DNA of 64,000 nt from Colwellia sp. (GCA_026196955.1 JAPHTO010000060.1:18425-82424), one strand, 5' to 3'. Positions 1,637-34,466 are shown, numbered from the stretch's first letter. Notes: generated from the sequence alone by a model not told the origin. A program made the numbers and translations.

Positions 1637-1645
1637 GCTGGTGCC

Positions 1646-3385: not shown

Positions 3386-3437
3386 TGAGTACTTTTGCCG
3401 CCTAAATTACGCTTTACAGTAACAAGGTGAATTTTTA

Positions 3438-3884
3438 CTACTGGTAGTCGCCTAAATTCCAATTACCAATATCATCTTCAGTACCTACTTCACCATCTGG
3501 CCCTGCGGTAAAGACATCCATTTTGCCATGCTCACCTGGGTTTAATAAATAATACTCACCACCCCAAGGATCTTTAGGTAAACGCTTAACGTAGCCATCT
3601 TCTTGAAAACGACGAGGTAAAGGCTCAACATCGGTTTCTTCAACTAGGGCTTCTAAGCCCTGATCTGTGGTAGGGTAATCATAATTATCTAATTTATACA
3701 TATTTAACGAGTTTTCTAAGGCGGTGATGTCAGATACGGCTTTTTGCATATTGGCTCGTTCTTGACTTCCCATAAGATTTGGCACCACCATGCTAGCTAA
3801 AATACCTAGAATAACAATAACCACCATCACTTCTAACAGGGTAAAACCTTGAACTCTTTTACTGTTTAACTTCGCTTTATTCAT
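3438..3884 (-). CDS. gspG: Type II secretion major pseudopilin GspG
   Basis: QGFTLLEVMVVIVILGILA prepilin N-terminus, 148 aa, with conserved GspG-like C-terminal region (DPWGGEYYLL). Confidence 0.95.
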   Translation of the reverse strand: MNKAKLNSKRVQGFTLLEVMVVIVILGILASMVVPNLMGSQERANMQKAVSDITALENSLNMYKLDNYDYPTTDQGLEALVEETDVEPLPRRFQEDGYVKRLPKDPWGGEYYLLNPGEHGKMDVFTAGPDGEVGTEDDIGNWNLGDYQ

Positions 3885-3973
3885 TTTACTTTCCTAACTA
3901 CTTATCTAAATTCATTAACACTTATTCGATTGTCTCTATTACAGAGCCAAATCTAGAAGGACGAATATCGGCG

Positions 3974-5224
3974 TTAACCACCAACCAGGGTATTTAACTG
4001 TAAAATCGGCTCTAAAATGGCAACCACTATAAATAATACGATCCCCGCCATTACCACCATTAATGCAGGCTCAAAAGCTTTTAATGAAATATTCACCAAG
4101 GCTTCAAACTCTCTATCTTGGTTGTCTGCCGCTCGACCTAGCATATGCTCAAGTTGACCACTTTTCTCACCGCTGGCGATCATGTGCAGCATCATAGGTG
4201 GAAACAGTTTTGTTTGCTCTAAGGACATGCGTAAACTCGACCCTTCTCTCACTTTGTCAGCTGCCGCTTTCACTTGTTGCTTAATAAACAGGTTATCAAG
4301 TACTTCACCTGATATCTTCATACTCTCTAGCAAGGGCACAGCACTGGCAGTTAAAATACTCAAGGTTCGAGCAAAGCGCGCCGTGTTTATCCCCTTAGCA
4401 ACTTTTCCAATCCCCGGCAGCGCAATAACACGCTGATGATAAGCTAGTTGAAATGCCGGCTTTTTTATCAATTGAGAAAATAATAGCACTATGGCTGCAA
4501 TTATCAGTACCAACACTAGACCATAGGCCTGCAAAAACTCACTACTCGCAATTAAGAATTGGGTAGTTGAGGGTAAATTTTCACCCATGTGTTCAAATTG
4601 ACCGACAATTTGTGGGACAACTTTCGTTAATAGTATTGCGATTACGCCCACCGCAACGACCGTCATAATAATAGGGTATACCAAGGCTTGAATGAGCTGC
4701 GAGCGCATTTGTTCTCGTTGCTCTGTATAATCTGCTAATCGATTCAATACTTTATCTAAATGACCTGATTTTTCACCGGCAGCAACCATAGCACGATATA
4801 AACGATTAAAAACTTTCGGAAATTCAGCCATGCTCTCAGCTAAACCATAACCTTCAGTGACCTTGGTACGCACCCCCATGATCATGCTTTTAATACGATT
4901 TTTTTCGCCTTGCTCTGCCACTGCCATAAGTGACTCTTCAAGCGGTAAACCCGATTCAACCAGAGTGGCTAATTGGCGTGTGATCAAGGCTAATTCAGCA
5001 GCAGAGATTTTGCCCTGATTTCCTCTACTAGCAGCACGAATAGTACTTTTACCAGCCACTTTGCCTGAGCTAACTTTGTTACTCGCTAATGTGGCGACAA
5101 CTTCTATAGGCATTAAACCTTGATCACGCAGCATGCTACGTACTTGTCTAGGTGTATCTCCTTCAATAACGCCTTTTTTGGTTTTTCCCCGACTGTCTAC
5201 AGCCTGATAATCAAATGCAGCCAT
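3974..5224 (-). CDS. gspF: Type II secretion inner-membrane platform protein GspF
   Basis: 416 aa polytopic protein with the duplicated GspF-type cytoplasmic domains; operon position. Confidence 0.95.
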   Translation of the reverse strand: MAAFDYQAVDSRGKTKKGVIEGDTPRQVRSMLRDQGLMPIEVVATLASNKVSSGKVAGKSTIRAASRGNQGKISAAELALITRQLATLVESGLPLEESLMAVAEQGEKNRIKSMIMGVRTKVTEGYGLAESMAEFPKVFNRLYRAMVAAGEKSGHLDKVLNRLADYTEQREQMRSQLIQALVYPIIMTVVAVGVIAILLTKVVPQIVGQFEHMGENLPSTTQFLIASSEFLQAYGLVLVLIIAAIVLLFSQLIKKPAFQLAYHQRVIALPGIGKVAKGINTARFARTLSILTASAVPLLESMKISGEVLDNLFIKQQVKAAADKVREGSSLRMSLEQTKLFPPMMLHMIASGEKSGQLEHMLGRAADNQDREFEALVNISLKAFEPALMVVMAGIVLFIVVAILEPILQLNTLVGG

Positions 5225-6798
5225 TAATCTTCTCGTGTGACCCGCAAGACTTCTTCAAGTGTTGTTTGTCCGGTCATAACTTTATCAAAACCATCACGGC
5301 GTATAGAGGCCGTATTTTGACGGATATATTTTTCAATCGCTTGTTCACCATGGCCGTTATGAATAATCTCTCTCACTTTATCATCAACCACTAACAGCTC
5401 ATGAATCCCTGTACGGCCTTTATAGCCTTTAAAGTTACATTCTGAGCAGCCAACAGCGCGGTAAATCTTCTGCTTATTATCGCTAGGTAAACCTAACAAG
5501 GTACGCTCTTCTTCATCGGGCAGATGACTTTCTCGACAATGCGGACAAAGAGTACGCACTAAACGCTGTGCCAATACACCTAATAAACTAGACGATAATA
5601 AAAATGGCTCAACCCCCATATCTTCCATACGGGTAATTGCCCCAGCAGCAGTATTAGTATGTAAGGTTGATAACACTAAGTGACCGGTAAGACTAGCTTG
5701 TACGCCAATTTGTGCGGTTTCTAAATCACGAATTTCACCCACCATCACCACATCGGGATCTTGTCGTAAAATAGCCCGTAAACCACGAGCAAAGGTCATA
5801 TCAACCTTGGTATTAACCTGTGTTTGCCCGATCCCTTCAATTGCGTATTCAATGGGATCTTCTACCGTGAGAATATTGCGCTCTTTGGCATCAATTTGCG
5901 TCAACCCTGCATACAAAGTAGTACTTTTACCCGAGCCCGTAGGGCCTGTAACTAGAATAATGCCGTGAGGCTTATCAATTAACTGACTAAAAGAGTGACG
6001 ATTAACATCTGTCATTCCAAGGTCTTCAAGATCTAATCGAGCCGAATTTTTATCTAGCAAACGCAATACCACTCGTTCACCATGACCCGTTGGCATTGTC
6101 GATACACGCACATCAACCGCTCGCCCACCAATACGTAGTGAAATACGGCCATCTTGTGGAATGCGTTTTTCAGCAATATCGAGTTTTGCCATAACCTTAA
6201 TACGTGAAACCAACAAAGAGGCTAGTTTACGATTTGGCTTTAATACTTCTCGCAAAACTCCATCGACACGAAAACGTATTTGCAACGCATTTTCAAAGGT
6301 TTCAATATGGATATCACTGGCGGTTTCTTTAATCGCTTCACTGAGCATGGCATTGATCAGCTTAATGATTGGCGCATCATCTTCGTTTTCAAGTAAATCT
6401 TCACTTTCAACCATTTCATCAGCAAGCGAATATAGATCCACTTCATTACCAATATCTTCCATCATTTGCTGTGCTTCAGATGAGTCACGTTGATACGCGT
6501 CAGTAAGAAGAAGTTCAAATGAAGTTGCATCCTGGACATCAAAACTAAAAGGCGCTTTAATAATTCGGCGCACTTCAATGATAGTGTCTAAGCTGATGTC
6601 TGCTAAACAATGCAAAACATAACCGTCTTCTTGCTGACTTAAAAGCACACTAAAACGCTTGGCAAAGGCAAAAGGTAAACGCCAAGCGGTTGAGCTAAGC
6701 GCTTGTTCATCTTCTATTAAAGCCTGCTTTTTGACTGGCGCTATTGATTGTTCGCTATCTTGTTCTGTGTTTAACTGATCAGCATCTAAATCAGCCAT
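5224..6798 (-). CDS. gspE: Type II secretion ATPase GspE
   Basis: Walker [10 protein letters not shown], the secretion-ATPase Asp/His boxes, and a tetracysteine CPHC...CSEC motif. Confidence 0.95.
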
Positions 6799-8930
6799 TA
6801 GTTGTTATTCTCGTCTAATAGTTCTTGTTTCGCTTTCGTATCTTTGTCTTCTGCTTTTGATTTTTGGTAATCATCAAAAGAGGGTGGCAGTGATAGATCA
6901 TCATTCCATTCAGGTAAAATAGGTAAGACATCACTACTCATCAGTGACAAACCTTCTTCTTGCTTGCGTAGTTCATCAGCACGAATAAAGTTATATTTTT
7001 CCTTCGCCATGGTATTCATCACATTAGCATCGGTAATAATTGTGGGACGTAAAAATACCATTAAATTACGCTTACGGGTGCTATTAGAGGTTGATTTGAA
7101 TAAGTGACCAATAATTGGAATATCACCTAGTAGCGGCACTTTTTGCACACTTTCTTGCACATCTTCATCAATCAAACCACCTAAAATAACGGTCGCACCA
7201 TTTTCTACCATGACGGTAGTTTTAATTTCACGTTTATTGATAGAGATATCAACGCCTGTTGCACCACTCACCGAAGAAACTTCTTGTTCGATAGTTAGCT
7301 GTACACCAGTGCCTTCATTGATTTGCGGCGTGACTAATAATTTTATCCCTACCTCTTGTCTGTCTACCGTTTGGAAAGGGTTAGAGTTATTACTACCGGT
7401 TTGTGAGCCAGTGATAATAGGCACTTCTTGACCCACTAAGAAATAGGCTTCTTCATTATCTAGTGTTGTAATGCTCGGTGTTGCCAAAATATTAGAATTA
7501 GTATCAGAGCTAACCGCTTGCACAATAGCGCCCCAATCATTTTCCATAATACCAAACATGCCACCGCTAACGGTACCAAGCAATTGTGCCAATAGAGTAT
7601 AATCACCTCGAGTATCTGGGTTTGTCGTTGTAACAGGGTTACCATTTGAATCGATAGTAGTTACTGAGTTCCCCTCTTCACCTTCAGCAGATATTGCTGC
7701 TGCAGCAACAGAAGAGATAGGCGCTGGACCGTTGGTAAATTGGGTAAAGCCACCCGCCTCACTGTACCATTGCACGCCAAGTTGTACGCCGTCGGTTTCA
7801 AAAACTTCAACAATAATAGCTTCGATATGCACTTGTGCACGCGGTACATCAAGTTGTCGAATCACTGACTCAAGTGAGCGGAGCATATCGGGTTGGCCAG
7901 TAATCACTAAGGTATTGGTTGATTCATGAGCTTCGATACTGGTATCAGTTTTTGACTTGCTTCGCGTTTTGGATGTTGTTGACTTTTCTTCTGAGGCAAT
8001 GGTTTTACTGACGCCATCAAGTACTTTAACTAAATCATCTGCTTTCGCATATTTTAAGTAGTAAATTCGGGTATTACCGCTGGTTTCTAATTCACTATCA
8101 AGACGCTTAACTAAACGACTAACACGTTCGCGTGCTTGAATTTCACCGCTAACAATAACGCTATTTGAGCGATCATCCGCCACTATTTTTGGTATTAAAA
8201 AGGTAGGTTGTCCCGCTTTACCACCACTTGGTTTATTCATGGCTTCAATAATGCGGACTATTTCTCCAGCAGAAGCATATTGTAATTTAATAATTTCAAC
8301 ATCTTGGTCGCCGGCTCTATCAACACGCTCAATAATTTTGACTAAGCGGTTTACCGTTGCGGCTGTACCGGTAAGCATAATAACGTTAGCCGGATCATAG
8401 TTAGTCACATTGCCGCCGCCTGCTTGATCTGATAATTGACGTAGCAATGGCACTAACTCACGGACAGTAACATTTTTCACTTCCACAATTCGAGTCACCA
8501 TTTCGTCGCCAAGTATAGTACTATTACTGCCAACGACAGGAATTGAAGAGGTTTTCGCGTCTTTATTGCGAATGATCTTAATAATGTTGTTATCCATTTC
8601 TACCGCAGCAAATCCGTAGACTTCCAACACATTTAAGAAAAATTGATAATATTGTTCTTCAGAGAGTAAATCATAGCTACGTACGTTCACTTTACCGCGT
8701 ACGTTAGGGTCAACAATCATGGTCTTTTTCAAGTTTTTGCCAACAATATTGACAAACTCCGTCACTTCAGTGCCCTTAAAGTTAGGAGAGTATTGCGCAG
8801 CACTTGCTTGCCCAACAGCAAAAATACCACTAACAATAGCGGCGGTTGCTAGCGCCATGCCAGTTTGTTTGAGTTGCTTAAACAGGTGGAAAAAATGCTT
8901 TACCACTGAAACGTTTAAGGTGGTGCCCAT
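6798..8930 (-). CDS. gspD: Type II secretion outer-membrane secretin GspD
   Basis: 710 aa with a signal peptide, N-domains and a C-terminal secretin domain ([16 protein letters not shown]). Confidence 0.95.
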
Positions 8931-9006
8931 GAAAAATTCCTTATTGCTTTTTATTTTATAATACTCAAGATTTTATAATGTTTAATATTAATTTTTTACA
9001 CTGTCA

Positions 9007-9957
9007 TTAATCAATACTAAAAAGTATTTCAACTAAATCATTATTGCGATTAACTAATAATGAAATATCACGTTCGGTTTTCAATGCTGACATTGCTTGT
9101 GCGGCCTCTACTGGTGTAAGTAAATCATAACCATTCATTTGCACAGCGACATCGCCTGCTTTTAGCCCTGATAATTTGAAAAACTCAGGATTCTTACCCG
9201 GAGATAAGCGATACCCCACTATTGCACCGTTTTCACGCGCGGGTGAAATACGCAAATAATCGGTGATCTTACCCGGGTTTTCACTAAGATCAGCTCTTAA
9301 TTTAACAGCGCTTTTGCTCAACTCTTTATTTAAACGTTGGTCAACAATATTTTGTTGTTTGGGGCCAATATCAGACATCTTATTTTTACGCTGAGGGGGC
9401 TTATTTTCTACTTCAGTAGCAACAATCCCCTTAGCTGGTTGGTTATAATCTGCCCCATCCAACATTAATGTCTCTAACCGACCTGACTGTTTGATAATTA
9501 CTCGGTCAATTAATACCTGCTCAAGGCTTGCGCGAGTACCTATGATGATATCACCAATACCATAAGTCTCTTGCTTACCCTTGTGTTCAATAATAGCCGC
9601 CGCCGTTTCACTACTATCGCTAGCAACCGCCGCAGATAAAGTTAATTGCAAACGTGTTTGCGGCGCATTTTGCACTTGCTCAACAACTTCTTCTACTTGG
9701 CTATTATATTGGCCAAATAAATTAAGCGCTTGCAGTGCTGATAAATTATAATTACTTGCTGTTTGTTTTTTATAAATTTTACTATGAATAGTCGTGCTAT
9801 TTATTGCTTGCTCTTGCGGCACAAACAGCCAAGTTATTTTCGCCGCTAAAAAAGCAATATAGATGAGTAACAATAAGCTAATCGCCTGTGCTATTTTTTG
9901 TTGCGGTAGTTTTGCCAGCACGGTGGAAAATGATGTCAAATTATTGGTTAAAGCCAT
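9007..9957 (-). CDS. gspC: Type II secretion protein GspC (TM anchor plus PDZ domain)
   Basis: N-terminal TM helix and a C-terminal PDZ-like segment (GYRLSPGKNPEFFKLSGLKAGDVAVQMNG). It is the first gene of the operon. Confidence 0.8.
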   Translation of the reverse strand: MALTNNLTSFSTVLAKLPQQKIAQAISLLLLIYIAFLAAKITWLFVPQEQAINSTTIHSKIYKKQTASNYNLSALQALNLFGQYNSQVEEVVEQVQNAPQTRLQLTLSAAVASDSSETAAAIIEHKGKQETYGIGDIIIGTRASLEQVLIDRVIIKQSGRLETLMLDGADYNQPAKGIVATEVENKPPQRKNKMSDIGPKQQNIVDQRLNKELSKSAVKLRADLSENPGKITDYLRISPARENGAIVGYRLSPGKNPEFFKLSGLKAGDVAVQMNGYDLLTPVEAAQAMSALKTERDISLLVNRNNDLVEILFSID

Positions 9958-23513: not shown

Positions 23514-23567
23514 TGGCTAAAGGAACTTGAACCCTCGACAACCAGAATCACAATTCAACTCATAGCC
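23514..23567 (-). repeat. Displaced, decayed copy of the tRNA-His 3' half (distal att-like site) plus a conserved element end
   Basis: TGGCTAAAGGAACTTGAACCCTCGACAACCAGAATCACAAT aligns with tRNA-His 32080-32121. The next ~50 nt are homologous to 27964-28015. Confidence 0.7.
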
Positions 23568-23704
23568 TTTTAAAATTATTACTTTTAGTGGTTTATCACG
23601 GTTATTATTGCAAAGAATAAGAACAGAAATAGAGGCTATGGTGTACATCAGCCAACCAACAAAAAAAATACTAATGTGGTTAAGTTCTTATTTTTATAAC
23701 GTGT

Positions 23705-24949
23705 TTACTGCTTTTTGTTACCAATGATCTCCTTGAGAGTATGGATAAAAGTGTTTATCTCTTTCTCATCGTTATAATAATGTACTGAAGCACGTACTAA
23801 ATCTGGAAGTTGTCGCTTAGTAGCATCAATTAACGTGCTTGACGGGCAGCTAGAGCTTACATTTATGTTTTTGCCATGAAGCTGTTCAACTATGCTAGGT
23901 GCTGTAAAACCATCAACAGTAAACGTGACTATTCCACATTTATTCTTCCCTATGTCTTGAACGGTGACACAGGGAATTGCAGATAACATTGTACGTAACT
24001 TTTCAGCCAATAAAACTACAGCACTTTCAATATTTTCAATACCTATATTGAGAGCATAATCCACAGCAGAGCCGAGACCAAGTTTAGCACTATAATTATT
24101 CTCCCAGTTTTCAAATCGGCGAGCATCATTTCTCAACTCATAGCTGGAGGGGCTAGTCCAAATTGCAGACATTAAATCAATCATTGGAGGATGCAGCTTT
24201 TTAATTACGCTTTTGCGTACAAACAGAAAACCAACTCCTCTCGGCCCCCGTAGATATTTTCGACTTGTTGCCGATAGTACATCACACTGAATACTTTCAA
24301 CATCTAAAGGAATTTGTCCAGCTGACTGGCAGGCGTCTACAATATAGAAAATGTTCTGGCGTTTGGTAATGGCGCCTATTTCTTCCACTGGATTGATCAA
24401 TCCTCCATTGGTGGGTACATGTGTCACTGAAACCAATTTTACCTGTTCATCAATCATTCCCTCTAGCGATGAAATACAAATTTCTCCTTCAGTATTTGAA
24501 GGTATAACCTCTATGATGACCCCTTTTTGCTTTGCAACTTGAAGGTAAGCCAAATAATTGGATGCATATTCAGCTTCACAAGTGAGAATGCGATCCCCTT
24601 TTTTAAAGGGAATAGAATAGAAAGCCATCATCCATCCGACAGTTGCATTTTCAACAATAGCGATTTCATCACGATGACAATTAATTAAGCGCGAGATTGA
24701 ATCATATACAGCTTCTATTTGATCTGACATACAATTTGCTGCTTCATATCCCCCAATTGATGCTTCCAATGTTAAATGGTTGAGTTGAGTTTCAAATACG
24801 CAATTAGGCATTAATGAAGAACCAGCATTGTTCAAGTGAATTACATTTTTCTTTCCTTGTGTATCATTAAAAACCGCTTCTTTATCGATTGGCATATTCT
24901 TATCTCTTGTGTTGACTATATAAGTTATTTCACAGGAATATAAAGCCAT
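23705..24949 (-). CDS. Class V aminotransferase / cysteine-desulfurase-like PLP enzyme (start possibly Met19 at 24895)
   Basis: PLP-lysine region SATSRKYLRGPRGVGFLFV and the HLNNAGSS N-terminal motif typical of class V fold-type I enzymes. Confidence 0.85.
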   Translation of the reverse strand: MALYSCEITYIVNTRDKNMPIDKEAVFNDTQGKKNVIHLNNAGSSLMPNCVFETQLNHLTLEASIGGYEAANCMSDQIEAVYDSISRLINCHRDEIAIVENATVGWMMAFYSIPFKKGDRILTCEAEYASNYLAYLQVAKQKGVIIEVIPSNTEGEICISSLEGMIDEQVKLVSVTHVPTNGGLINPVEEIGAITKRQNIFYIVDACQSAGQIPLDVESIQCDVLSATSRKYLRGPRGVGFLFVRKSVIKKLHPPMIDLMSAIWTSPSSYELRNDARRFENWENNYSAKLGLGSAVDYALNIGIENIESAVVLLAEKLRTMLSAIPCVTVQDIGKNKCGIVTFTVDGFTAPSIVEQLHGKNINVSSSCPSSTLIDATKRQLPDLVRASVHYYNDEKEINTFIHTLKEIIGNKKQ

Positions 24950-25012
24950 TTACAAACGATTTTTCTTTTAATAGACTTTACAAAATGTAAAGTAAGCTTG
25001 GGAAACTATAAG

Positions 25013-25942
25013 ATGAAATTGCCGCCACTAACAGCCCTCACCTATTTCAATGCGGCTGCATTACAGTTAAGTTTCAAGGCTGCGGCTAAGCAATTTTGTG
25101 TGACAGAGGGGGCGATAAGCCGACAAATTAAACTTTTAGAAGAATATTATGGTAAACCCCTGTTTGTTCGAACTAGGCGAGGAGTTCAATTGACGGATGC
25201 TGGGCAGCGTTTGATTTCAGTTATCGAACCTGCAATACAGAAGATTTTTCAAATCTCACAAGAGATACGCGGGTATAGTCCACAGTTCACATTGTCAGTC
25301 ACTACTAGCTTTGCTATACGTTGGTTGTTACCACGATTAGCAAATTTCGAAGCTACTCACCCTAATTTTCCAATAAATATTCAAGCAGCTAAAAATCCTC
25401 AAAAAATACAAAGTGTTGATTATGGAGCAAGTATTATTTATGTATTAGGAGATCCATATCACTCTGAAGCTACTATCCCAGCTAATGGGCATTTTGTCAT
25501 GGCGGAGTGGCTTATACCGGTGTGTTCACCAGCACTTTTAGACGAAGGAAAGTCGATTTCTCCATCATCTATGGAGGAGTTTAGGTTGATATTAAATGAG
25601 TCGAGCGGACGAGATTGGCGCCTTTGGTTAGAGTGCACTCCCACGGCAAAAGTACAATTTGATACAGCTATCAGGCTTGAGCATGACGATACAGCGATAC
25701 AGGCGGCTGTCGCAGGACATGGAATCGCTTTAGCTAATGTTGCTTACATAGATAATGAATTAAAAATGGGGAGTTTAGTTCCCATAATTGACCATCCTCC
25801 AGTTGCCATCGGTGCGCATTATTTTATTTGTAAACCAAGTTGTTTTGAACAACCTCATATTAAAGCGTTTAGTGAATGGCTTATGAAAAGTGCAGCCGAA
25901 TGCCTACCTCAAAATGACAAGATACCTAAGTACGGTGAATAA
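25013..25942 (+). CDS. LysR-family transcriptional regulator (GcvA-like), divergent from the aminotransferase
   Basis: N-terminal HTH LTALTYFNAAALQLSFKAAAKQFCVTEGAISRQIKLLE. I use the ATG at 25013 rather than the TTG at 24998. Confidence 0.9.
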   Translation: MKLPPLTALTYFNAAALQLSFKAAAKQFCVTEGAISRQIKLLEEYYGKPLFVRTRRGVQLTDAGQRLISVIEPAIQKIFQISQEIRGYSPQFTLSVTTSFAIRWLLPRLANFEATHPNFPINIQAAKNPQKIQSVDYGASIIYVLGDPYHSEATIPANGHFVMAEWLIPVCSPALLDEGKSISPSSMEEFRLILNESSGRDWRLWLECTPTAKVQFDTAIRLEHDDTAIQAAVAGHGIALANVAYIDNELKMGSLVPIIDHPPVAIGAHYFICKPSCFEQPHIKAFSEWLMKSAAECLPQNDKIPKYGE

Positions 25943-26128
25943 CATGACTATCAGAAATTTTGTAGCTGAAAAATAATTCCCTTCTTAATGAACCAAACTA
26001 TAAGTTAAAAACTAGCATGAATATATTAAAGTGGGTTAGTGAAACAAACCCATATGAAATTTCAATTGTAAGCTATTATTCAAAATGCACTTAGCAGCAT
26101 AAATGCAATGTTTGTACATTTATAATAA

Positions 26129-26263
26129 GTTTCTTGTTTTGCTTTATCATCTTATATAATTGCCCTCCAACGACTTGAAACTTTGAAAAAATATGCTGAT
26201 AACCATGACAAATCTATCAGTCAAATTGTACGAGAATCGTTAAAGACTTTGTTAAATAAATAA
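26129..26263 (+). pseudogene. Start-less remnant of a ribbon-helix-helix (CopG/antitoxin-like) gene
   Basis: The open frame ...YIIALQRLETLKKYADNHDKSISQIVRESLKTLLNK* has no in-frame ATG/GTG start upstream of the RHH-like segment. It is followed by a perfect 11-bp hairpin (26276-26303). Confidence 0.3.
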
Positions 26264-26404
26264 AAGCGGTGAAGTAGTGATAATCCAATACTGGATTATC
26301 ACTAAATTAGACCATTTAATTCATGTATTGTCGCAATTGTTCAAGACATATTGATTATCAATCTATAACCTTCTTCATACTTTAACCAATGAGGAGGCAA
26401 CGCC

Positions 26405-26794
26405 TTGAAATTTAAATACACGATACTTTATGTTGATGATGTTATTGAAACATTCAATTTCTATGAAAAAGCATTTGGCCTTAAAAAGAAAATGCTCCAT
26501 GAGAGTGGAGAGTATGGGGAATTAGATACTGGCAGTACGATACTTTCATTTTCCTCTCTCAAGCTCATGAAAGAACTAGGAAAAAACCCTGCTAAACCTA
26601 ACTTAAAAGCCCCTACGTTTGAAGTGGCTTTTGAAACTGATAATGTAAAGACTGCACTGTCTAAAGCACTAGAGGCGGGGGCTTCACTCGTGCAAGATGC
26701 TACGGATATGCCTTGGGGGCAGACAATAGCTTATGTAATCGAGAACAATGGTTTTTTAGTTGAAATTTGTACGCCTGTAGCTTCTCAGGCATAG
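26405..26794 (+). CDS. VOC (glyoxalase/bleomycin-resistance/dioxygenase) family protein
   Basis: 129 aa, TTG start preceded by GAGGAGG, and a VOC-like pattern (KYTILYVDDVIETFNFYEKAFG ... GFLVEICTP). Confidence 0.8.
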   Translation: MKFKYTILYVDDVIETFNFYEKAFGLKKKMLHESGEYGELDTGSTILSFSSLKLMKELGKNPAKPNLKAPTFEVAFETDNVKTALSKALEAGASLVQDATDMPWGQTIAYVIENNGFLVEICTPVASQA

Positions 26795-27426
26795 CCTTTG
26801 TCATTTAGCTGCCTGATAATAGCTGGAGAATTTAATACCTGTACTGGTGTTAACCCAAACCAGCGCTGAAACTCTCTATTCATATGAGACTGATCAGAAA
26901 AGCTGTAGTTTTCCGCATGATCAACTAGGCACACACTTTGGCTTAAACTTCTGGCAGCTTTTCTAATTCTAGCTAATTGTAACCAATAACTAGGTGTTCT
27001 CTTGGTCTTACTTAAAACCAGTCGCTGTAAAGTTCTGGTGCTGACCCCAAGTTGAGCCGAAATTTGTTTTATCGAACCCATCTCACTAGCAAAACACGTT
27101 AGTGCTTCCTCAATTGAGCTTTCGGTAGAAATAAAATCACCTATAAAGCCTTTCACATCTTCAGCATGAAGTTGTTTTGTTTCAATGTAGTCTAATAACT
27201 CACGCTCTTTAATTTCTGCTCCAGGACTTAAGCGAAAGCCAATATAATTGCAGCTTTCTTCTATCTGAACAAACTCGGGGCGGTCGTATAGAGGTGACAC
27301 TAACCAATTTGGTTTTTCATTTTCCAACGTTTTGACTATCAAATCACGACAACCATCAGGAATGACAATTGTCGATGTTGCGGCATTAAAGTCTGCACTC
27401 CAAATAGAAATCAGGTTATCGTTCAT
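26785..27426 (-). CDS. AraC-family transcriptional regulator
   Basis: C-terminal double HTH (ISAQLGVSTRTLQRLV ... FSDQSHMNREFQRWFGLTP). Its 3' end overlaps the VOC gene by 10 nt (convergent). Confidence 0.85.
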   Translation of the reverse strand: MNDNLISIWSADFNAATSTIVIPDGCRDLIVKTLENEKPNWLVSPLYDRPEFVQIEESCNYIGFRLSPGAEIKERELLDYIETKQLHAEDVKGFIGDFISTESSIEEALTCFASEMGSIKQISAQLGVSTRTLQRLVLSKTKRTPSYWLQLARIRKAARSLSQSVCLVDHAENYSFSDQSHMNREFQRWFGLTPVQVLNSPAIIRQLNDKGYA

Positions 27427-27917
27427 TTTATTAAGCTAAATATTATATTACAGTCTTGTCTTCAAATTCACAAAGTTCTTCAATAATGAAAGTACCACAC
27501 TAATAGCTGGCTTCATAGCGACTGCTTCGAGCTTTGTTGTCTATCAAGGTAAAGACAGGTCAGCCCCTTTCGGATACTAAAAATAGCTCAAAAAGTTATT
27601 CATATTTATCTCTAATGGCGGAACTGCTGCCATTATTTCATTAATCAAACTGCAACGGAGCTAGACAGTAAAATGAATGTGTCACCAAGCTCTATCTCTA
27701 ATTGGCAATGTTATGAAAAGATCAAAGTTATAACTATTAATAACTTTTGTTGGTATTTATTTACTTTTCGCCCGCACAGGAGTTGAATATGGATTTGTTG
27801 CTTTATCTAAAATTAAGAGTATAAAAACGTTAAATTAAATAAGGGACAAGTAGCTAAATGCCGCATGGTTATTGAACTAATGGATAGCTTAATAATTTTT
27901 CGAGGAGATATAAAAGA

Positions 27918-27976
27918 TGGGGTGGCTAAAGGGACTTGAACCCTCGACAACCGGAATCACAATTCAACTCCTAGCC
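27918..27976 (-). repeat. Displaced copy of the tRNA-His 3' half (internal att-like site between the two cassettes)
   Basis: 27918-27963 matches 32076-32121 at 44 of 46 positions. The 2 differences are compensatory in the T stem. The sequence then diverges into an element end shared with 23556-23607. Confidence 0.8.
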
Positions 27977-28092
27977 TTTTAAAGTCATTACTTTTAGTAG
28001 TTTATCATTGTTATCAGTGTTTATGTTTTTTGCAATTATTAACTTTTGATGGTTATTAATGTATATCTATAGGCACAGAATACGCACAGGAC

Positions 28093-28124
28093 TTTGAAAC
28101 CTAACACCTTAGTTAGGTTTCAAA
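28093..28124. terminator. 13-bp hairpin downstream of the S8 peptidase gene
   Basis: TTTGAAACCTAAC (28093-28105) pairs with GTTAGGTTTCAAA (28112-28124). The T-rich tail is only on the plus strand, so its role as the minus-strand terminator is uncertain. Confidence 0.35.
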
Positions 28125-28162: not shown

Positions 28163-30652
28163 TTAAACCACCACTTCTACAGGCACTGTTAATCCCACTT
28201 GTATAGAAACAGGAGTATATAGATCTACCGTCTGATCTGGTGTAGTAATCGACACAATCAAAGAGTAACGAGTCGCTTTATCCCATTTACCTAAATGACT
28301 ACGCTCTCGCCACCATCCAATCGTTGGCGATATACCTATTAAGTTAGAAGCAGCTAAATCAGCTGCTGTCCCTTTCCATATATCAGAATGAATAGATCCC
28401 CTATCTCTAGCTTGACTACCTAGTAGCCAATGATCGCTAGGGCTGCTAGTACCAGAACCATTTTCATCTGAATCTCTAGCCGCTTTATTAATTCGTTTTA
28501 AAAATTCATCTTTTGACTCGCTAGGGGAATTTAGGTCAAATCTAAGCGCATGTGAAGCATATCTATACCTATTTTTCCAACCAATTTCCCCGGGACCAGC
28601 CTCTATGAAGTATGAGAGCGTTATACGCATTTCTACAGGAGTACCATGAGGTAAATCTAAAAGTGTTTCTTTAGGCCAAGGCAGTTCGTGAAGGTGCATG
28701 TCCTTAGTGCGATATCCACCTGTAGGCTTTTTATCAAATGGTTGTAATGTCGATTGATTTATAAGTGTTAATGAATTTTTAGCGCTATGTAGAGCTCTTT
28801 CTAGGTCTGGTATACCATAACCGCAGACACTTAAAAGATGCTTGTAACTAGTTTTACTTTCATCATTAATGAATTGTCTTTTTAATGTATCGGGCCAAGA
28901 AGCACTATGAACTAACAAAGCTCTTATGGTTTCAGGCCAAAATTCTGGAAATGCTGAATTTAATTTACCACTCATCCATGCTAGTTGAGCTGCAGCAGCA
29001 CTTGTCATACTGAAAGTACTAAAATGTGCTTGTTGTGGATTATAAAAAGTAGAAAGTAAACTCAAATCATCACACTCAGTTACAAAACTACTTTCGTCAA
29101 TAGCAAGGTTACCACCCTCCATTACCAGCTCAGGTTTTATAGGCCATTTATTTTCCTCCCACGTAGAGGATGTAGTAGAAAATGGTGAAAGACCAAATTC
29201 AGGAGCTACACTGGAATATCCATTTAAAGTTGCATCAGTTATTTGGGTTAATGTCGTATACGCGCCAACAGTTAAAGCATTCCATGATTGAGCCGGATCA
29301 TGAACAGAGTCAGTTAACTGAATATCAGGATAACGAATAGCGGCATCTGTGATGCTTGCAGTAGTGTTTCCTGCACTTAGTATAATTAAACGTTGAGTAT
29401 CGTCATTAGCCCCTGATGAAAGCTGATCAATTTGAGCTGACCATGAGGTCGGCCTTCCTCTATCTCTCGTATCTTCTGCTGTAATAGCCATGCAAAAGCT
29501 GCGCTGCCTATTAGGAGCTTGAATTTCAGCACGGCTAACAGCTTGAGATGTAATATATCCCCATATATTTGCAGTATTTTGCTCTGGCGGCTGAGGTAAT
29601 ATTTTGACTGATTCTAGATTATGGGTTAATTCAATTCGTGAGGTAGAGTTTAAGGCGTCAATTAAGTTTCCATAACCACTTATTCCAGCCATTAAAGTGC
29701 CATGTTTATCATGGTCATGCTTACCCCATTCTTCATTAACGGTATGGCAATCATTATCAATTAATAAATCACGTATTAATGGATGGCCATTATTTACTCC
29801 AGTATCAAGTATACAGACACTAGCCTCTGAACTAAGGTCTATATTAATACGACCAAGTAGATCATCTACCCACTCACCTTGATCTTTATTATTTAAAGTC
29901 ATCCAGAATTCAGCGGTGATTTTAGCTTTACGATACTCTGCAATGTGATCAGATAGTTCTGATAACTTTTCTAATTGAGCATTATTAGCATAGATAACTT
30001 TAACAGCTCGTTCGGGGAATTTAATAATGCCTTCTTTAAACTGAATTTCTTGCTCACCTAATAGTGATTCAAATGCGCTGATAACCGTCAAATTATCACT
30101 ACTCAACCAAACCTCAATCCATTCAGGGGTATTTGTAGGTATCAAATCATATGCATCACTCCAAAAAGAATCCACTAATAATGCTTTGCGAATGTTTGAT
30201 ATTGTATTAATTAAAGCCGCATTCTTAGGTTTGTCTTTGGAGGTGTTTACATGAAGATAATCAGAAACTTTATCAAGAAAGAAATTCTTTTGAGCATTAG
30301 GAATGTATACAGTTGCGTATTGAATGCGAGTATTGTTATCAGGATTTGTAATTTCACGAACATTTAGTAATCGAATTTTCTTAGGCAAATTCTCTAAGCT
30401 TTTTAATTCTAATTCAGAGTCAGGATCACTAATAAATTCTAGATAAATACCGTTTCGAGTAGCATGGCTCACGGCACTTTCATTTTCTGCTTCTTCCCAA
30501 GCATTATTTAATTGTATTTGTAAATATGCACCGTGGGTTGCTCGATCGCGGCTAGGAGGCGGTTTACCTTGTCCACGCCTTGTTGTTGTATAATTGCTCG
30601 TCTCAGGGGCTTGAGTTAAAACTATATGGGGGAGTCTTCCTTCGGTCATCAC
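28163..30652 (-). CDS. Large signal-less (predicted cytoplasmic) S8 subtilisin-family serine peptidase, IetS-like (likely start ATG at 30649)
   Basis: Catalytic residues occur in canonical S8 order: D283 (CILDTGV), H317 (KHGTLMAG), N429 (LSAGN), S551 (SMTSAAAAQ). There is no signal peptide or TM segment. AAGGA lies 6 nt upstream of the ATG at 30649. The ~270-aa N-terminal and ~230-aa C-terminal regions are unassigned. Confidence 0.85.
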   Translation of the reverse strand: MMTEGRLPHIVLTQAPETSNYTTTRRGQGKPPPSRDRATHGAYLQIQLNNAWEEAENESAVSHATRNGIYLEFISDPDSELELKSLENLPKKIRLLNVREITNPDNNTRIQYATVYIPNAQKNFFLDKVSDYLHVNTSKDKPKNAALINTISNIRKALLVDSFWSDAYDLIPTNTPEWIEVWLSSDNLTVISAFESLLGEQEIQFKEGIIKFPERAVKVIYANNAQLEKLSELSDHIAEYRKAKITAEFWMTLNNKDQGEWVDDLLGRINIDLSSEASVCILDTGVNNGHPLIRDLLIDNDCHTVNEEWGKHDHDKHGTLMAGISGYGNLIDALNSTSRIELTHNLESVKILPQPPEQNTANIWGYITSQAVSRAEIQAPNRQRSFCMAITAEDTRDRGRPTSWSAQIDQLSSGANDDTQRLIILSAGNTTASITDAAIRYPDIQLTDSVHDPAQSWNALTVGAYTTLTQITDATLNGYSSVAPEFGLSPFSTTSSTWEENKWPIKPELVMEGGNLAIDESSFVTECDDLSLLSTFYNPQQAHFSTFSMTSAAAAQLAWMSGKLNSAFPEFWPETIRALLVHSASWPDTLKRQFINDESKTSYKHLLSVCGYGIPDLERALHSAKNSLTLINQSTLQPFDKKPTGGYRTKDMHLHELPWPKETLLDLPHGTPVEMRITLSYFIEAGPGEIGWKNRYRYASHALRFDLNSPSESKDEFLKRINKAARDSDENGSGTSSPSDHWLLGSQARDRGSIHSDIWKGTAADLAASNLIGISPTIGWWRERSHLGKWDKATRYSLIVSITTPDQTVDLYTPVSIQVGLTVPVEVVV

Positions 30653-30674
30653 TTATCCTTGAATAAAAATCCTA

Positions 30675-31643
30675 TTACCGCCCTAAATACGCTCCATGAC
30701 GATGATTTATTGAATCTAAAACTTGAGTGGCTTTTACTTTGTTATGGTCACTTAGTACGGCAACTTTAATTGCATCTTCACATGCATGTGCTATTTCTGC
30801 GTGACTTAAACCATCGCTATTTTTAAGCACCCTTTTCCACGCGAAATTTGAATCAATAAAACGACCAAGAACATTTTCAATAAGATGCTTACGCTCTTCT
30901 TCTTGTGGCTCTTGATAATGAAGAACATCATCAAAACGACGGAAAAGTGCATGATCAAGCAATTTAGGGTTATTGGTTGCAGCTACAATAAAACTATCAG
31001 ATTGATCCTGTTCAATAAATTGTAGAAATGCATTTAAAACCCTACGCATTTCACCAACATCATTGTCCATAGTTCGTTCGCTACCTATTGCATCAAACTC
31101 ATCAAATAGATAGACACCACTCTCCTGTTTAATTAAATCAAATATCTGACGCAATTTAGCACTTGTTTCACCCATAAACTTAGTAACTAATCGGTCAACT
31201 TGAATAATATGAAGTGGTAAATTTAATTCAAAAGCCAAAACTTTAGCTGTTAAGGTTTTTCCCGTTCCTGGTGGGCCTGATAGTAAAATTTTTCTTCTAT
31301 GGTCAAGTCCGTGTGATTTGAGTTTACCTCTTTGTCGGTACTCATGGAAAACGCGTTCGATACGTTGCTCCATTTTAGTTTCCATAATTAAAGCTGATTT
31401 AGGTATGTTAGGTGCTTCAGTTAAAACTAGATTCTTTAAATCCTGAGGAAACGATATTACTTTCAAAGCTTTTCGAGAGTCCAAAAGCTTTTTGTCAACT
31501 AAATCACGGATCTCGTGAGCAAGAGTTGCATGCCCTTGTTTAGCTTCATGGGCAGCAACCTGCAGCGCTATAGTTAAAAAACGCTCCTTATCTTCACTAG
31601 TATACGAGCGAATTAGTGATTTTATTTGTTCTGCCGTTGCCAT
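30675..31643 (-). CDS. Classic-clade AAA+ ATPase, IetA-like
   Basis: Walker A GPPGTGKT (123-130), Walker B VYLFDEFD (177-184), sensor-1 AATNN (221-225), arginines in FRRFD (234-238), and a ~110-aa helical N-domain. It lies 22-25 nt upstream of the S8 gene on the same strand. Confidence 0.85.
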   Translation of the reverse strand: MATAEQIKSLIRSYTSEDKERFLTIALQVAAHEAKQGHATLAHEIRDLVDKKLLDSRKALKVISFPQDLKNLVLTEAPNIPKSALIMETKMEQRIERVFHEYRQRGKLKSHGLDHRRKILLSGPPGTGKTLTAKVLAFELNLPLHIIQVDRLVTKFMGETSAKLRQIFDLIKQESGVYLFDEFDAIGSERTMDNDVGEMRRVLNAFLQFIEQDQSDSFIVAATNNPKLLDHALFRRFDDVLHYQEPQEEERKHLIENVLGRFIDSNFAWKRVLKNSDGLSHAEIAHACEDAIKVAVLSDHNKVKATQVLDSINHRHGAYLGR

Positions 31644-32075
31644 GATCTTTTAACCCGATTTGTAAGTACTGATATCATACCTAATAAATATATACTTATG
31701 TATTAAAAGTTATAAACATTTATAGCCGATCAGTGTTAGTCAATATGGTCTTGTTTGTAGATTTTGTCGCTAAAATAATGAAATCCATTTTGCTTGGAAT
31801 TTAACCCTTTTTCCCGAACCATATACACAAAAGAGAAAATGGCAGAGCGAGTTAACTGCAATAATTGCTCTAAATGATCAATAAAATCAGCCTCTTTAAT
31901 AAACGTAATATCATCTTCCGCACAGGATACGCACAGGAATAGGATATGAATTTGGTGTTTTATCTAAAAATTAGAGTACAAAAAAGTTGAATTAAATAAA
32001 GGGGAAAATAACTAAGAACTGCGCGGCTATTGACCTGATAGAATATTTAAGAAATTTTTTGAGGGAGTATAAGAG

Positions 32076-32152
32076 TGGGGTGGCTAATGGGACTTGAACC
32101 CACGACAACCGGAATCACAATCCGGGGCTCTACCAACTGAGCTATAGCCACC
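32076..32152 (-). tRNA. hisT-tRNA: tRNA-His (anticodon GTG), intact, with G-1 and encoded CCA
   Basis: The reverse complement reads GGTGGCTATAGCTCAGTTGGTAGAGCCCCGGATTGTGATTCCGGTTGTCGTGGGTTCAAGTCCCATTAGCCACCCCA, nearly identical to E. coli tRNA-His. The anticodon loop is TTGTGAT. Confidence 0.95.
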
Positions 32153-32284: not shown

Positions 32285-33184
32285 CTAATCTGCAACGCCA
32301 GCTATATTTTCATCTAAAAAGTCTAAGAAGACACGCGTTTTAGGGGAAACAAGATCTCGCTTTAAGTAAATGGCATAGGTAGCACTGAGTTCTTCATATG
32401 GACTAAAGACATGCTCAGGCATAACTTGGCTTATCGAACCATTTTCTAACTCCTTTTTAATAGCCCAAAAAGGCATTAATGCCAGTCCCGCATCATTTAA
32501 TACTAGCTGTTTTTGACCATTTACCGAGTTAACTGAAATACTTTTATTAATGGTTAGTTTTATTCTTTCTTCAGCCATTAAAAACCAATCTTTCCAACGG
32601 GAATAACTGTATTGAATACATTGATGGTCTATTAAGTCTTCTGGGTTAAGAGGTGTACCTTTGCTAGCTAAATATTGTGGGCTAGCACACAATAAAAAAT
32701 TATTATAAGCCAATCGTTTTGCAATCATAGATGAATCAGGTAATCGACCACTGCGAACCGCCACATCAATATTTTCTTCAACAAGATCAACAACACGCTC
32801 AGTTAACTCAACTCTAACATCAATATCTGGGTACAATGTCATAAACTTGGAAATAAGTGGTAGCACAACACTTTCGCCAAACCCTACAGTCATGCTTATT
32901 TTTAGCGTACCTCTTGGCCTTTCTTGCAAGTCATTAACGACTCTTTTAGCTTCATCAAACTCAGATACAATACGCTGAGAAAACTCATAATATTTATGCC
33001 CTGCTTCTGTTAATCCGGTATTTCTGGTGGTTTTATTCAAAAGACGAACACCAAGCTCCTGTTCAAGAACCGCTAATTGCCTAGAAATAGAAGAAGGCTG
33101 CACATCAAATATTCTACTGGCTTCAGAGATGCTACCCGTCTCTACCACGCAGTTGAAATACAATAACCGATTCAACGAACTCAT
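32285..33184 (-). CDS. LysR-family transcriptional regulator
   Basis: HTH LNRLLYFNCVVETGSISEASRIFDVQPSSISRQLAVLE. It is transcribed divergently from the oxidoreductase gene. Confidence 0.9.
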   Translation of the reverse strand: MSSLNRLLYFNCVVETGSISEASRIFDVQPSSISRQLAVLEQELGVRLLNKTTRNTGLTEAGHKYYEFSQRIVSEFDEAKRVVNDLQERPRGTLKISMTVGFGESVVLPLISKFMTLYPDIDVRVELTERVVDLVEENIDVAVRSGRLPDSSMIAKRLAYNNFLLCASPQYLASKGTPLNPEDLIDHQCIQYSYSRWKDWFLMAEERIKLTINKSISVNSVNGQKQLVLNDAGLALMPFWAIKKELENGSISQVMPEHVFSPYEELSATYAIYLKRDLVSPKTRVFLDFLDENIAGVAD

Positions 33185-33362
33185 TTTTCTCTCCTATGTA
33201 ACCTTATTATTACCTGAACTTATACTTTCACCACATTGACCAGTATTGTCCAAAAGACAAATGTTATTTGCCTGTTAGGTGGTTGGTTGCTCTATTAGCA
33301 AGAGATAGAATAGCTTCACTAAAACAAACTATCAAATCAACAAACAAATAAAGAGTAATATT

Positions 33363-34340
33363 ATGAAAGCAATGATCATTAAAGAAATAGGCAGTAGTGA
33401 AGTTTTCCAAATGTCTGAAAAAGTGAAGCCAGTAGCTAAACCTGGCCATATGGTTGTAGCTGTAAAAGCAACGAGTGTAAATCCTATTGATACTATGCTT
33501 CGCTCAGTTGAATTGCCTTGGTCAGAAAACTTACCAGAGATACTACACGGTGATGTTGCAGGCATTGTTATCGAAGTTGGTGCAGGTGTGGCTGATTTTA
33601 AGGTTGGTGACGAAGTCTACGGAATGGCTGGTGGTATTAACGGTACTGATGGTGCGTTGGCTGAATTTATGTTGGTTGATGCACGATTAATGGCTCTAAA
33701 ACCGAAAACATTATCGATGAAACAAGCCGCAGCCCTACCGTTAGTTGCCATTACTTCCTATGAAGCGCTTGTTGAAAAAATGAATGTTAAGGCCGGTGAT
33801 AATGTGCTTATTCATGGCGCTGTTGGAGGAGTTGGCCACATCGCTGTTCAGTTAGCAAAAGTGCTTGGCGCAAATGTAACCTCAACTTACTCTCCAGCTA
33901 ATGAAGCATTAGCTAAAACAGTAGGTGCGGATAATTTAGTTGATTACACCACAGAGTCTGTTTCTGATTACGTACAGTCATATACTGGCGGTGCTGGCTT
34001 TGACAAAATCTTTGATACCGTTGCAGGTGATAATATTGAAAAGTCATTTGAAGCAGCTAAATTCAATGGTCATGTAGCCACAATATTACCAATTTCTGAT
34101 CCACTACAAGTTGCACTTAAGGGGTTATCTTTTCACAGTGTTCTAATGCTTATTCCATTATGTCACGGCGTTAACCATGAATCACATGGCCGTATTCTTA
34201 CAGAGATTGCAGCGCTGGTTGATGCTGGTAAAATTACTCCAATTATTGACCAAAGTGATTATTCAATATGGGAAGTAGCTAAAGCGCATGATTTACTCGC
34301 GTCAGGTAAAGCGGTAGGCAAAATCACCTTAACAGTTTAG
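33363..34340 (+). CDS. Zinc-type alcohol dehydrogenase / NADPH:quinone oxidoreductase (MDR superfamily)
   Basis: 325 aa, GroES-like N-domain (FKVGDEVYG), and Rossmann motif GAVGGVGHIAVQLAK. Confidence 0.9.
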   Translation: MKAMIIKEIGSSEVFQMSEKVKPVAKPGHMVVAVKATSVNPIDTMLRSVELPWSENLPEILHGDVAGIVIEVGAGVADFKVGDEVYGMAGGINGTDGALAEFMLVDARLMALKPKTLSMKQAAALPLVAITSYEALVEKMNVKAGDNVLIHGAVGGVGHIAVQLAKVLGANVTSTYSPANEALAKTVGADNLVDYTTESVSDYVQSYTGGAGFDKIFDTVAGDNIEKSFEAAKFNGHVATILPISDPLQVALKGLSFHSVLMLIPLCHGVNHESHGRILTEIAALVDAGKITPIIDQSDYSIWEVAKAHDLLASGKAVGKITLTV

Positions 34341-34381: not shown

Positions 34382-34466
34382 ATCACAATCCGAGATTATA
34401 ACAACTGAGCTATAGTCACACTAAATTTACTGTAGCGTCACATGATGAAGTGCTGAGAGTATATTT
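34382..34466 (-). pseudogene. Decayed copy of the tRNA-His 5' half plus its promoter region
   Basis: ATCACAATCCGAGATTATAACAACTGAGCTATAGTCACACTAAATTTACTGTAGCG...GAGAGTATATT aligns with 32115-32199, roughly four-fifths identical by eye. The D-stem and acceptor are broken. Confidence 0.55.

Follow-up and report, generated by a model that had tools for sequence, protein, structure and literature searches.

A 64,000-nucleotide stretch of a Colwellia sp. genome assembly (GCA_026196955.1, JAPHTO010000060.1:18425-82424; the entire stretch is referred to here as the window) carries, at positions 28,163 to 31,643 of its minus strand, a gene for an AAA+ ATPase (ietA) followed by a gene for an S8 subtilase (ietS). 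The best overall explanation, to which we assign a probability of roughly 0.8, is that the two genes are a canonical IetAS pair of the type described from plasmid pTiC58, in which a toxic protease, IetS, is restrained by its partner ATPase, IetA, and that the pair resides as cargo in a cassette at a tRNA-His gene. Family membership, intact motifs, operon layout, pairing of the genes, and position within the cassette were all observed directly. The pair is a further copy of the known IetAS system and not a new kind of system, and standard tools would call it IetAS.

An initial annotation of this DNA had suggested an IetAS-like module, and profile searches agreed with that identity. IetA matched the PADLOC IetA model PDLC02196 with E=9.8e-77 over residues 2-313 of 322, and three more PADLOC IetA models matched it at 1e-65 to 3e-39. 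IetS matched PDLC02198 (IetS) with E=1.6e-37 over residues 186-818, well past the S8 core, and was matched by four more PADLOC IetS models, with the generic 'subtilase' model reaching just 3.6e-07. The founding locus on pTiC58 (NC_003065, 97873-101373) encodes a 328-aa ATP-binding protein and then an 836-aa S8 peptidase. The window IetA was 49% identical to pTiC58 IetA over its full length (E=2e-102), and the window IetS was 39% identical to pTiC58 IetS over residues 6-828 (E=2e-173), N- and C-terminal regions included. The pTiC58 pair also had the same best PADLOC models as the window pair, its IetS scoring 85.6 bits versus 126.9 bits for the window protein. By these sequence comparisons, the window pair belongs to the proteobacterial pTiC58-type branch of the family. 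The two loci share the order of ATPase then protease and have similar product lengths (328/836 aa for ATU_RS23410/ATU_RS23415 of pTiC58, 322/828 aa here). However, pTiC58 IetAS is located on a conjugative plasmid, whose stability and incompatibility it raises, whereas the window pair occupies a tRNA-His cassette in the chromosome of a gammaproteobacterium.

IetA is a classic-clade AAA+ protein with a helical N-domain of about 110 aa. All of the motifs first annotated in it were found at the residues then given (GPPGTGKT at 123, VYLFDEFD at 177, AATNN at 221, and FRRFD at 234), providing Walker A K129, Walker B D181/E182, the sensor-1 AATNN, and the arginine fingers in FRRFD. Pfam recognized the protein as AAA (E=1.2e-30), and it was also matched by proteasome-activating nucleotidase and FtsH profiles. 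The nearest solved structures are those of the p97/Cdc48 D2 domain (E=3e-42), which are unfoldases. Pore-loop-1 of IetA reads KFMGE, and K[FY]MGE is kept in 119 of 120 homologues, a degree of conservation that points to a substrate-threading hexamer.

The catalytic set annotated for IetS is present and is invariant in an alignment of 53 homologues. In the 829-aa numbering, ILDTG begins at 281 (D283), HGT at 317 (H317), SAGN at 426 (N429), and TSAAA at 550 (S551); in the 828-aa numbering the same four residues are D282, H316, N428, and S550. Three residues of the N-terminal part, H8, R34, and H39 (828-aa numbering), are likewise invariant in that alignment. The highest Kyte-Doolittle 19-residue window reaches 1.44 and is located at the extreme C-terminus, and the N-terminus is not hydrophobic. 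Thus, no signal peptide or transmembrane (TM) segment is evident, as had been noted at the outset, and IetS is predicted to be a cytoplasmic S8 subtilase.

The regions of IetS that flank the catalytic core had previously been regarded as unassignable. This view was correct with respect to Pfam, which matched Peptidase_S8 (E=6e-59, residues 276-613) but, at E values up to 10, returned nothing for residues 1-269 or 600-829. A sequence search of the PDB with IetS gave no match at E<=0.001. However, the end-to-end alignment with pTiC58 IetS identifies both flanking regions as conserved, IetS-specific parts of the protein. A profile built from the N-terminal region matched approximately 1,600 cluster representatives, and in all of them the region was N-terminal. 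Other architectures were sought among these representatives and none was found; an S8 domain was present in 10/10 of the odd-length representatives that were tested. Therefore, the N-terminal region appears to be specific to IetS rather than a shuffled module. PF27160, which is precomputed on some IetS homologues, may represent a newly defined domain that spans part of the N-terminal region of IetS.

Structure models are consistent with a multi-domain subtilase. The full-length AlphaFold model of IetS (pLDDT 77.5, pTM 0.70) has a tail, a long helix, two ferredoxin-like modules, the S8 core, and a C-terminal beta-sandwich (Table 1); the second alpha/beta module has beta-alpha-beta-beta-alpha-beta topology in the model. 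The nearest structures found by Foldseek with the whole chain were ProN-Tk-SP, Kex2, ASP, fervidolysin, and PCSK9, with alignments of 580-675 columns, and these subtilases are multi-domain proteins with a propeptide and a C-terminal beta domain. The modeled layout of IetS resembles that of such prodomain-catalytic-P-domain (convertase-like) subtilases. When modeled alone, the N-terminal region had a pLDDT of 86.4, and its matches were to tandem ACT/ferredoxin-like regulatory domains, a likeness of fold class only. An ACT or I9 domain is not claimed for this region because the matches are at the level of fold class, with TM <=0.36.

Homologues of both proteins are widespread. The search with IetS gave more than 5,000 matches, with full-length homologues of 57-69% identity in many phyla, and the search with IetA gave at least 8,000 candidates with a similar spread across phyla. 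Roughly 500 plasmid records carry IetA or IetS homologues, and the two genes adjoin each other in all six of the plasmid records common to the IetA and IetS plasmid match lists. At least 25 IetS and IetA homologues have a largest contig of equal size. An AAA gene (322-343 aa) is directly upstream of an S8 gene (836-845 aa) at loci L054, L055-57, L058-59, and L064, and the same order is found at L060 and on pTiC58, where the AAA gene encodes 319-328 aa. The expectation that the genes would be conserved as a pair was therefore upheld, the AAA-then-S8 arrangement being kept at every homologous locus inspected.

The contexts of these homologues are typically mobile or defense related. For example, a 61%-identical pair directly follows the tnsABCDE genes of a Tn7-like transposon that is inserted beside a glmS-like gene (ERR12731437, ERR12731496; L058/L059, 738-12526), and the pair is the first cargo of that element. 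A 69%-identical pair is in a defense island on contig VAPK010423809 of GCA_006243085.1 (L065, 3464-11334), together with AlpA, a PRTase-CE/wHTH protein with a retron-type reverse transcriptase, an HsdM N-terminal fragment, GmrSD, an HD protein, and a phage-type integrase; the initial annotation had proposed to check whether homologues are located in defense islands. One homologue is on an Alteromonas plasmid with transposases on both sides, and another adjoins MazEF.

The two window genes have the organization of a compact operon. The coordinates and spacing first reported, two minus-strand genes 22-25 nt apart, were reproduced. ietA is upstream of ietS, and the gap is 22 nt to the alternative GTG start of ietS and 25 nt to the ATG. 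The AAGGA in this spacer, read directly from the sequence and located 6 nt ahead of the ATG, indicates that the genes form an operon and are expressed in a coupled manner. The leader upstream of ietA is the presumed promoter/operator region, a function suggested by its sequence. It contains a weak sigma-70-like site (-35 at 31716, -10 ending at 31687, matching the consensus at only 9 of 12 positions in the scan) and the inverted repeat TTATAAA-TG-TTTATAA, and no open reading frame (ORF) of 25 aa or more with recognizable features was found in it. The hairpin 38 nt past the ietS stop is likely the terminator that closes the cargo. Base composition gave no strong island signal; only the GC content at third codon positions (GC3) was somewhat lower in ietA and ietS (0.23-0.24) than in neighboring genes (0.27-0.34).

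A metagenome-assembled genome of the same species (GCA_026193635.1) has flanks and an ietA gene identical to those of the window, and its contigs break on both sides of ietS. Exact-protein look-ups matched this assembly only. The closest IetS in the protein collection is 97% identical and is on a 3.4-kb contig. The 97% identity, together with the contig breaks around ietS, suggests strain-level variation or an assembly problem.

The intact tRNA-His gene, the only tRNA gene in the 64-kb window, is the apparent integration target of the IetAS cassette. The 3' 46 nt of the gene recur beyond ietS as a fragment (fragment 1) that breaks in the anticodon loop, a usual integrase crossover site. The two mismatches between this fragment and the intact gene constitute a compensatory pair in the T-stem (U50:A64 to A50:U64), indicating that the fragment derives from a once-functional allele. 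These results substantiate the earlier proposal of an att-flanked tRNA-His islet with this pair as its sole cargo, and add to it a larger repeat and at least two tandem islets. The repeated sequence exceeds the att core, because approximately 145 nt downstream of the tRNA are duplicated as well. The tRNA-proximal arm (31920-32075) is 79-84% identical to an arm of a second islet (27773-27917), and the 51 nt upstream of fragment 1 (27964-28014) are 91% identical to positions 23555-23605, which abut a further, degenerate tRNA fragment (23514-23554).

The inner edges of the arms are also related to each other. The 19-mer GCACAGAATACGCACAGGA that ends the tRNA-distal arm is repeated directly, with 18/19 matches, at 31920-31938, the inner edge of the proximal arm. 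Between the two 19-mers is a 3.8-kb slot that contains the leader, ietA, ietS, the terminator hairpin, and nothing else. In other words, the 4.1-kb integrase-less cassette, which extends from 32075 to 27964, has IetAS as its sole cargo. The octamer GCACAGGA (one copy reading GCACAGAA) is found at 27774, 28073, 28084, 31920, and 31931, always in one orientation and at inner arm edges. The arms hold four copies of GCACAGGA itself, and the rest of the 64 kb holds one (at 57525). On this distribution, the octamers are candidate binding sites for an arm-type recombinase or an accessory protein.

No integrase is encoded between 22.5 and 36.6 kb of the window, there was none among 20 further ORFs (202-479 aa) across the window, and no integrase remnants were recognizable in the non-coding parts of the islet. 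The lack of an integrase of its own suggests that the cassette is CIME-like or a fossil. CIMEs are cis-mobilizable elements that derive from integrative elements, have no integrase, and build up in tandem at tRNA genes. Like CIME-type elements, the cassette is att-flanked, lacks a recombinase, and is part of a tandem arrangement, and its arms are common to siblings with other cargo. It differs in that its arms are long (128-156 nt) and carry the repeated GCACAGGA octamers, and in that a parent element bearing an integrase was not found. A 176-nt stretch comprising the distal arm and the tRNA fragment (27913-28088) has an 85%-identical match in two metagenome contigs, where the cargo is unrelated. 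A search with the arm/anticodon-loop junction pattern gave 0 matches in viral contigs and 2 in metagenomes.

What the pair does in the cell can be approached through its studied homologues, and the toxin and antitoxin roles, the need for protease activity, the abortive outcome, and the phage trigger discussed below are drawn from the literature on them. IetAS was first defined by Yamamoto in 2009 as a plasmid-stabilizing toxin-antitoxin system with IetS as the toxin and IetA as the antitoxin, according to the accounts in PMC5006074 and PMC13069673. The sgiAT genes (S026/S025) of SGI1 are functional homologues, sharing 50% and 36% identity with those of pTiC58, and were shown to stabilize SGI1 and promote maintenance of the island (PMC5006074). 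By way of that published comparison with pTiC58, rather than a direct alignment, sgiAT would be placed in the same branch as the window pair. Both sgiAT and the window pair combine an AAA+ antitoxin, or predicted antitoxin, with an S8 toxin on a chromosomally integrated element. However, SGI1 is a trans-mobilized, 43-kb integrative mobilizable element that encodes an integrase of its own along with many further genes, whereas the window pair is alone in its integrase-less cassette. A Mycoplasma AAA/S8 pair, TA132/133, is a functional toxin-antitoxin system in which deletion of the antitoxin is lethal (PMC8562856). It resembles the window pair in being chromosomal with the antitoxin gene upstream, and flanking direct repeats were noted; it is from another phylum, encodes 353/757 aa, and is likened to the window pair by its description, not by sequence.

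Other members of the family act against phages. Anti-phage activity of ietAS is credited to Gao et al. 2020. For a Bacillus cereus (m1293) homologue, Stokar-Avihail et al. reported abortive infection, with toxicity triggered by SPbeta yosG (bioRxiv 10.1101/2022.08.27.505566). A 2026 paper described ietHAS, a three-gene variant with a helicase, in which protease activity is required and an ietA mutant was unclonable, and still called the way in which ietAS counters phages unknown (PMC13069673). The initial annotation, which had considered both trigger and mechanism unknown, is thus in line with current literature on the mechanism. However, a trigger and an abortive-infection outcome have been published, and the toxin-antitoxin history of the family had been missed. 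The anti-phage systems (Gao 2020; B. cereus m1293; E. coli ECOR52; ietHAS) have proteins of the same two PADLOC families as the window pair, and in them defense needs the protease, proceeds by abortive infection, and has the ATPase as antitoxin. The window pair is on a branch distant from these systems, and its cassette has no SNF2 helicase (ietH) gene. Toxicity of the window IetS and its neutralization by IetA would therefore be carried over by analogy from homologues, and phage protection from distant ones.

These considerations lead to the following model. IetS would be a cytoplasmic S8 serine protease that is toxic when uncontrolled, and IetA a hexameric AAA+ protein that prevents IetS from doing harm while IetA continues to be made and supplied with ATP. 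Because the pore loop KFMGE is kept, IetA probably neutralizes IetS enzymatically, by means of this threading loop. It may engage the conserved N-terminal tail of IetS, the tandem ferredoxin-like N-domains, or both, and thereby hold or remodel a latent protease. IetA could fail when a phage product blocks or titrates it, when ATP drops, or when the cassette is lost. The freed IetS would then cleave cellular or phage proteins, and growth would stop. The same dead-man switch could both abort infection and stabilize the cassette in the chromosome. The suggestion in the initial annotation that the AAA+ partner gates the protease needs correction, because published genetics show that the ATPase restrains the protease.

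A stronger version of this model can be put forward only tentatively. In it, IetA would be an ATP-driven unfoldase rather than a stoichiometric antitoxin, continuously engaging the tail and the ferredoxin-like domains of IetS, so that the dead-man switch would be gated by energy supply or proteostasis. The switch would also anchor integrase-less 'plug-in' cassettes at the anticodon-loop site of tRNA-His in Colwelliaceae.

Several points weigh against the reading of the pair as a canonical pTiC58-type IetAS carried by a cassette. IetA scored 216.7 bits against NCBIfam IteA_antiphage (NF042959), for which the equivalog cut-off is 510, and IetS scored 48.7 bits against IteS_antiphage (NF042956), for which the cut-off is 900 and the profile is only 747 positions long. 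On these scores the window pair is a homologue, not an equivalog, of the NCBIfam anti-phage reference pair, and anti-phage activity would thus be extended to this branch by analogy. In the accounts cited above, the closest experimentally studied relative found, the pTiC58 pair, was characterized as a plasmid-stabilizing toxin-antitoxin system, not as phage defense, and E. coli ietAS alone protects weakly, synergizing with Zorya II. For this organism, the whole model is assembled from sequence, structure models, and homologues; within it, the unfoldase-antitoxin step is suggested by motifs, the prodomain analogy for IetS comes from alignments taken at whole-chain level, and the fold matches of the IetS N-terminal region were weak (Foldseek E ~1e-3). 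An empty attB was not found in one scan of genome contigs with the flanking LysR gene (51 loci, none next to tRNA-His), nor was a cognate integrase found for the cassette. Mobility of the cassette is therefore deduced only from its repeats and its sibling cassettes.

One alternative is that the pair is purely an addiction module that stabilizes the cassette, or the tandem array, by post-segregational killing and has no meaningful anti-phage role. We regard this as possible, although doubtful. The stabilizing function of pTiC58 IetAS, the closest experimentally studied relative found, and of sgiAT on SGI1 would fit it, as would a cassette whose sole cargo is this pair, with no other maintenance function. 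The scores far under the anti-phage equivalog cut-offs and the weak protection by E. coli ietAS alone point in the same direction. However, the two roles are compatible, and other family members stop phage through the same toxic activity. Furthermore, the 69%-identical homologue is within a typical defense island, and an integrase-less chromosomal cassette would rarely be lost, which would leave weak selection for stabilization alone.

Another possibility, corresponding to the gated protease of the initial annotation, is that IetA serves as a sensor-activator which, on a phage cue, unfolds or strips an inhibitory prodomain-like N-terminal region and switches IetS on. The prodomain-catalytic-P-domain-like layout of IetS, ferredoxin-like N-modules in the topology class of subtilisin propeptides, and the threading pore loop kept in IetA are all compatible with such a role. 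Yet it is unlikely, because four systems behave in the opposite manner: the protease alone is toxic, the ATPase neutralizes it, and losing the ATPase either kills or gives a mutant that cannot be cloned.

Pairing of an AAA+ unfoldase gene with a protease gene, and the matches of IetA to proteasome-activating nucleotidase and FtsH profiles, might also suggest a housekeeping ATP-dependent protease in which IetA feeds unfolded substrates to IetS, as in ClpX-ClpP. This reading was rejected as very improbable because the distribution of the pair is patchy and mobile (plasmids, Tn7, islands, the tRNA islet) and the homologues behave as toxin-antitoxin systems; in addition, the pair was not found beside the same flanking LysR gene when 51 related genomes were compared, and tRNA-His was absent from that site in all of them. 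A secreted nutritional subtilase with an accessory ATPase, which might be considered because secretion is common among the S8 proteases of marine Alteromonadales, is scarcely credible and was also rejected, given the lack of a signal peptide or TM segment, the end-to-end homology to an intracellular toxin, and the obligate pairing with IetA.

The canonical IetAS cassette is one member of a tandem array that, read in the tRNA direction, consists of tRNA-His, islet 1 (IetAS), fragment 1, islet 2, fragment 2, and an unrelated flank. The arms of islet 2 are related to those of islet 1 on both sides, and its cargo is metabolic or regulatory; there was no integrase among its ORFs. Fragments 1 and 2 have the A50:U64 allele in common, whereas the live tRNA has U50:A64, which is consistent with stepwise integration in which the IetAS islet was the last to arrive. 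As judged from these alleles and its tRNA-proximal position, the IetAS cassette is the most recently integrated of the array. A divergent ADH-LysR pair (32285-34340) is directly before the intact tRNA-His gene, with a tRNA-His 5' fragment upstream of the pair. The ADH-LysR unit recurs in 51 genomes (Colwellia, Oleispira, Psychromonas, Photobacterium, Shewanella, and Moritella), never by tRNA-His. Tentatively, the unit and the 5' fragment may be one more inserted module, the third of the locus and located 5' of the tRNA.

The two metagenome contigs that share the distal arm, Ga0070725_10004934 (L063, 4265-5925) and Ga0209379_10003460 (L062, 122-3825), carry a sibling islet with a CapH-like HTH protein (PADLOC capH, 1e-12) and a CapP-like M78 peptidase (capP, 1.6e-39). 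Divergent from these genes is an operon encoding a DUF1508 protein, a class-3 lipase, and a further four proteins for which neither Pfam nor PADLOC gave a match. From its gene content, this islet is a candidate for an uncharacterized CapH/CapP-regulated defense operon. Elsewhere in the window, positions 524-9957 are occupied by a type II secretion gene cluster, in which the T2SS C, F, and K components were identified and which is ordinary core content.

Table 1. Features of the IetAS cassette, the neighboring islets, and the IetS protein (nucleotide positions refer to the window)
Feature	Position	Strand	Remarks
tRNA-His, anticodon GTG, intact	32076-32151	minus	ARAGORN; integration target; 3' 46 nt form the repeated core
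tRNA-proximal arm (P' arm), 156 nt	31920-32075	minus	begins GCACAGGATACGCACAGGA
Leader, 276 nt	31644-31919	minus	between P' arm and ietA; AT-rich; presumed promoter/operator region
ietA	30675-31643	minus	322-aa ORF; predicted antitoxin
Shine-Dalgarno-like AAGGA	30656-30660	minus	6 nt before ietS ATG, within ietA-ietS spacer; direct sequence reading
ietS	28163-30649 (ATG, 828 aa); alternative GTG start at 30652 (829 aa)	minus	ORF; predicted toxin
Hairpin, 13-bp stem	28093-28124		38 nt past ietS stop; terminator scan and self-complementary blastn match
tRNA-distal arm (P arm), 128 nt	27964-28091	minus	ends GCACAGAATACGCACAGGA
tRNA-His 3' fragment 1, 46 nt	27918-27963	minus	tRNA positions 31-76; 96% identical; distal att of islet 1
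Islet 2	23514-27917	minus	arm 27773-27917, arm 23555-23605, fragment 2
Islet 2 cargo: AraC-type regulator	26785-27426		
Islet 2 cargo: glyoxalase	26405-26794		
Islet 2 cargo: LysR	24998-25942		
Islet 2 cargo: aminotransferase	23705-24949		
tRNA-His 3' fragment 2, degenerate	23514-23554	minus	end of islet 2
tRNA-His 5' fragment, 38 nt	34382-34419	minus	positions 1-38; 84% identical; stops at anticodon loop
IetS tail	residues 1-27 (828-aa numbering)		sequence-conserved; pLDDT <50 in full-length model
IetS long helix	residues 36-61 (828-aa numbering)		AlphaFold model
IetS, two ferredoxin-like alpha/beta modules	residues ~67-155 and ~176-241 (828-aa numbering)		AlphaFold models, Foldseek
IetS S8 core	residues 276-613		Pfam and model
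IetS C-terminal beta-sandwich	residues ~629-802 (828-aa numbering)		AlphaFold model

IetAS is a widespread toxin-antitoxin/defense module, and the Colwellia locus is an unusually clean, minimal natural construct of it, with leader, ietA, ietS, and terminator set between two conserved arms. It also provides structural leads, namely, the putative threading pore loop of the antitoxin, the predicted two-ferredoxin N-terminal region of IetS behind a conserved tail, and the convertase-like layout of the modeled protease. In a modest way, the integrase-less cassettes arrayed in tandem at tRNA-His extend the picture of how small defense and toxin-antitoxin modules are exchanged among marine gammaproteobacteria.

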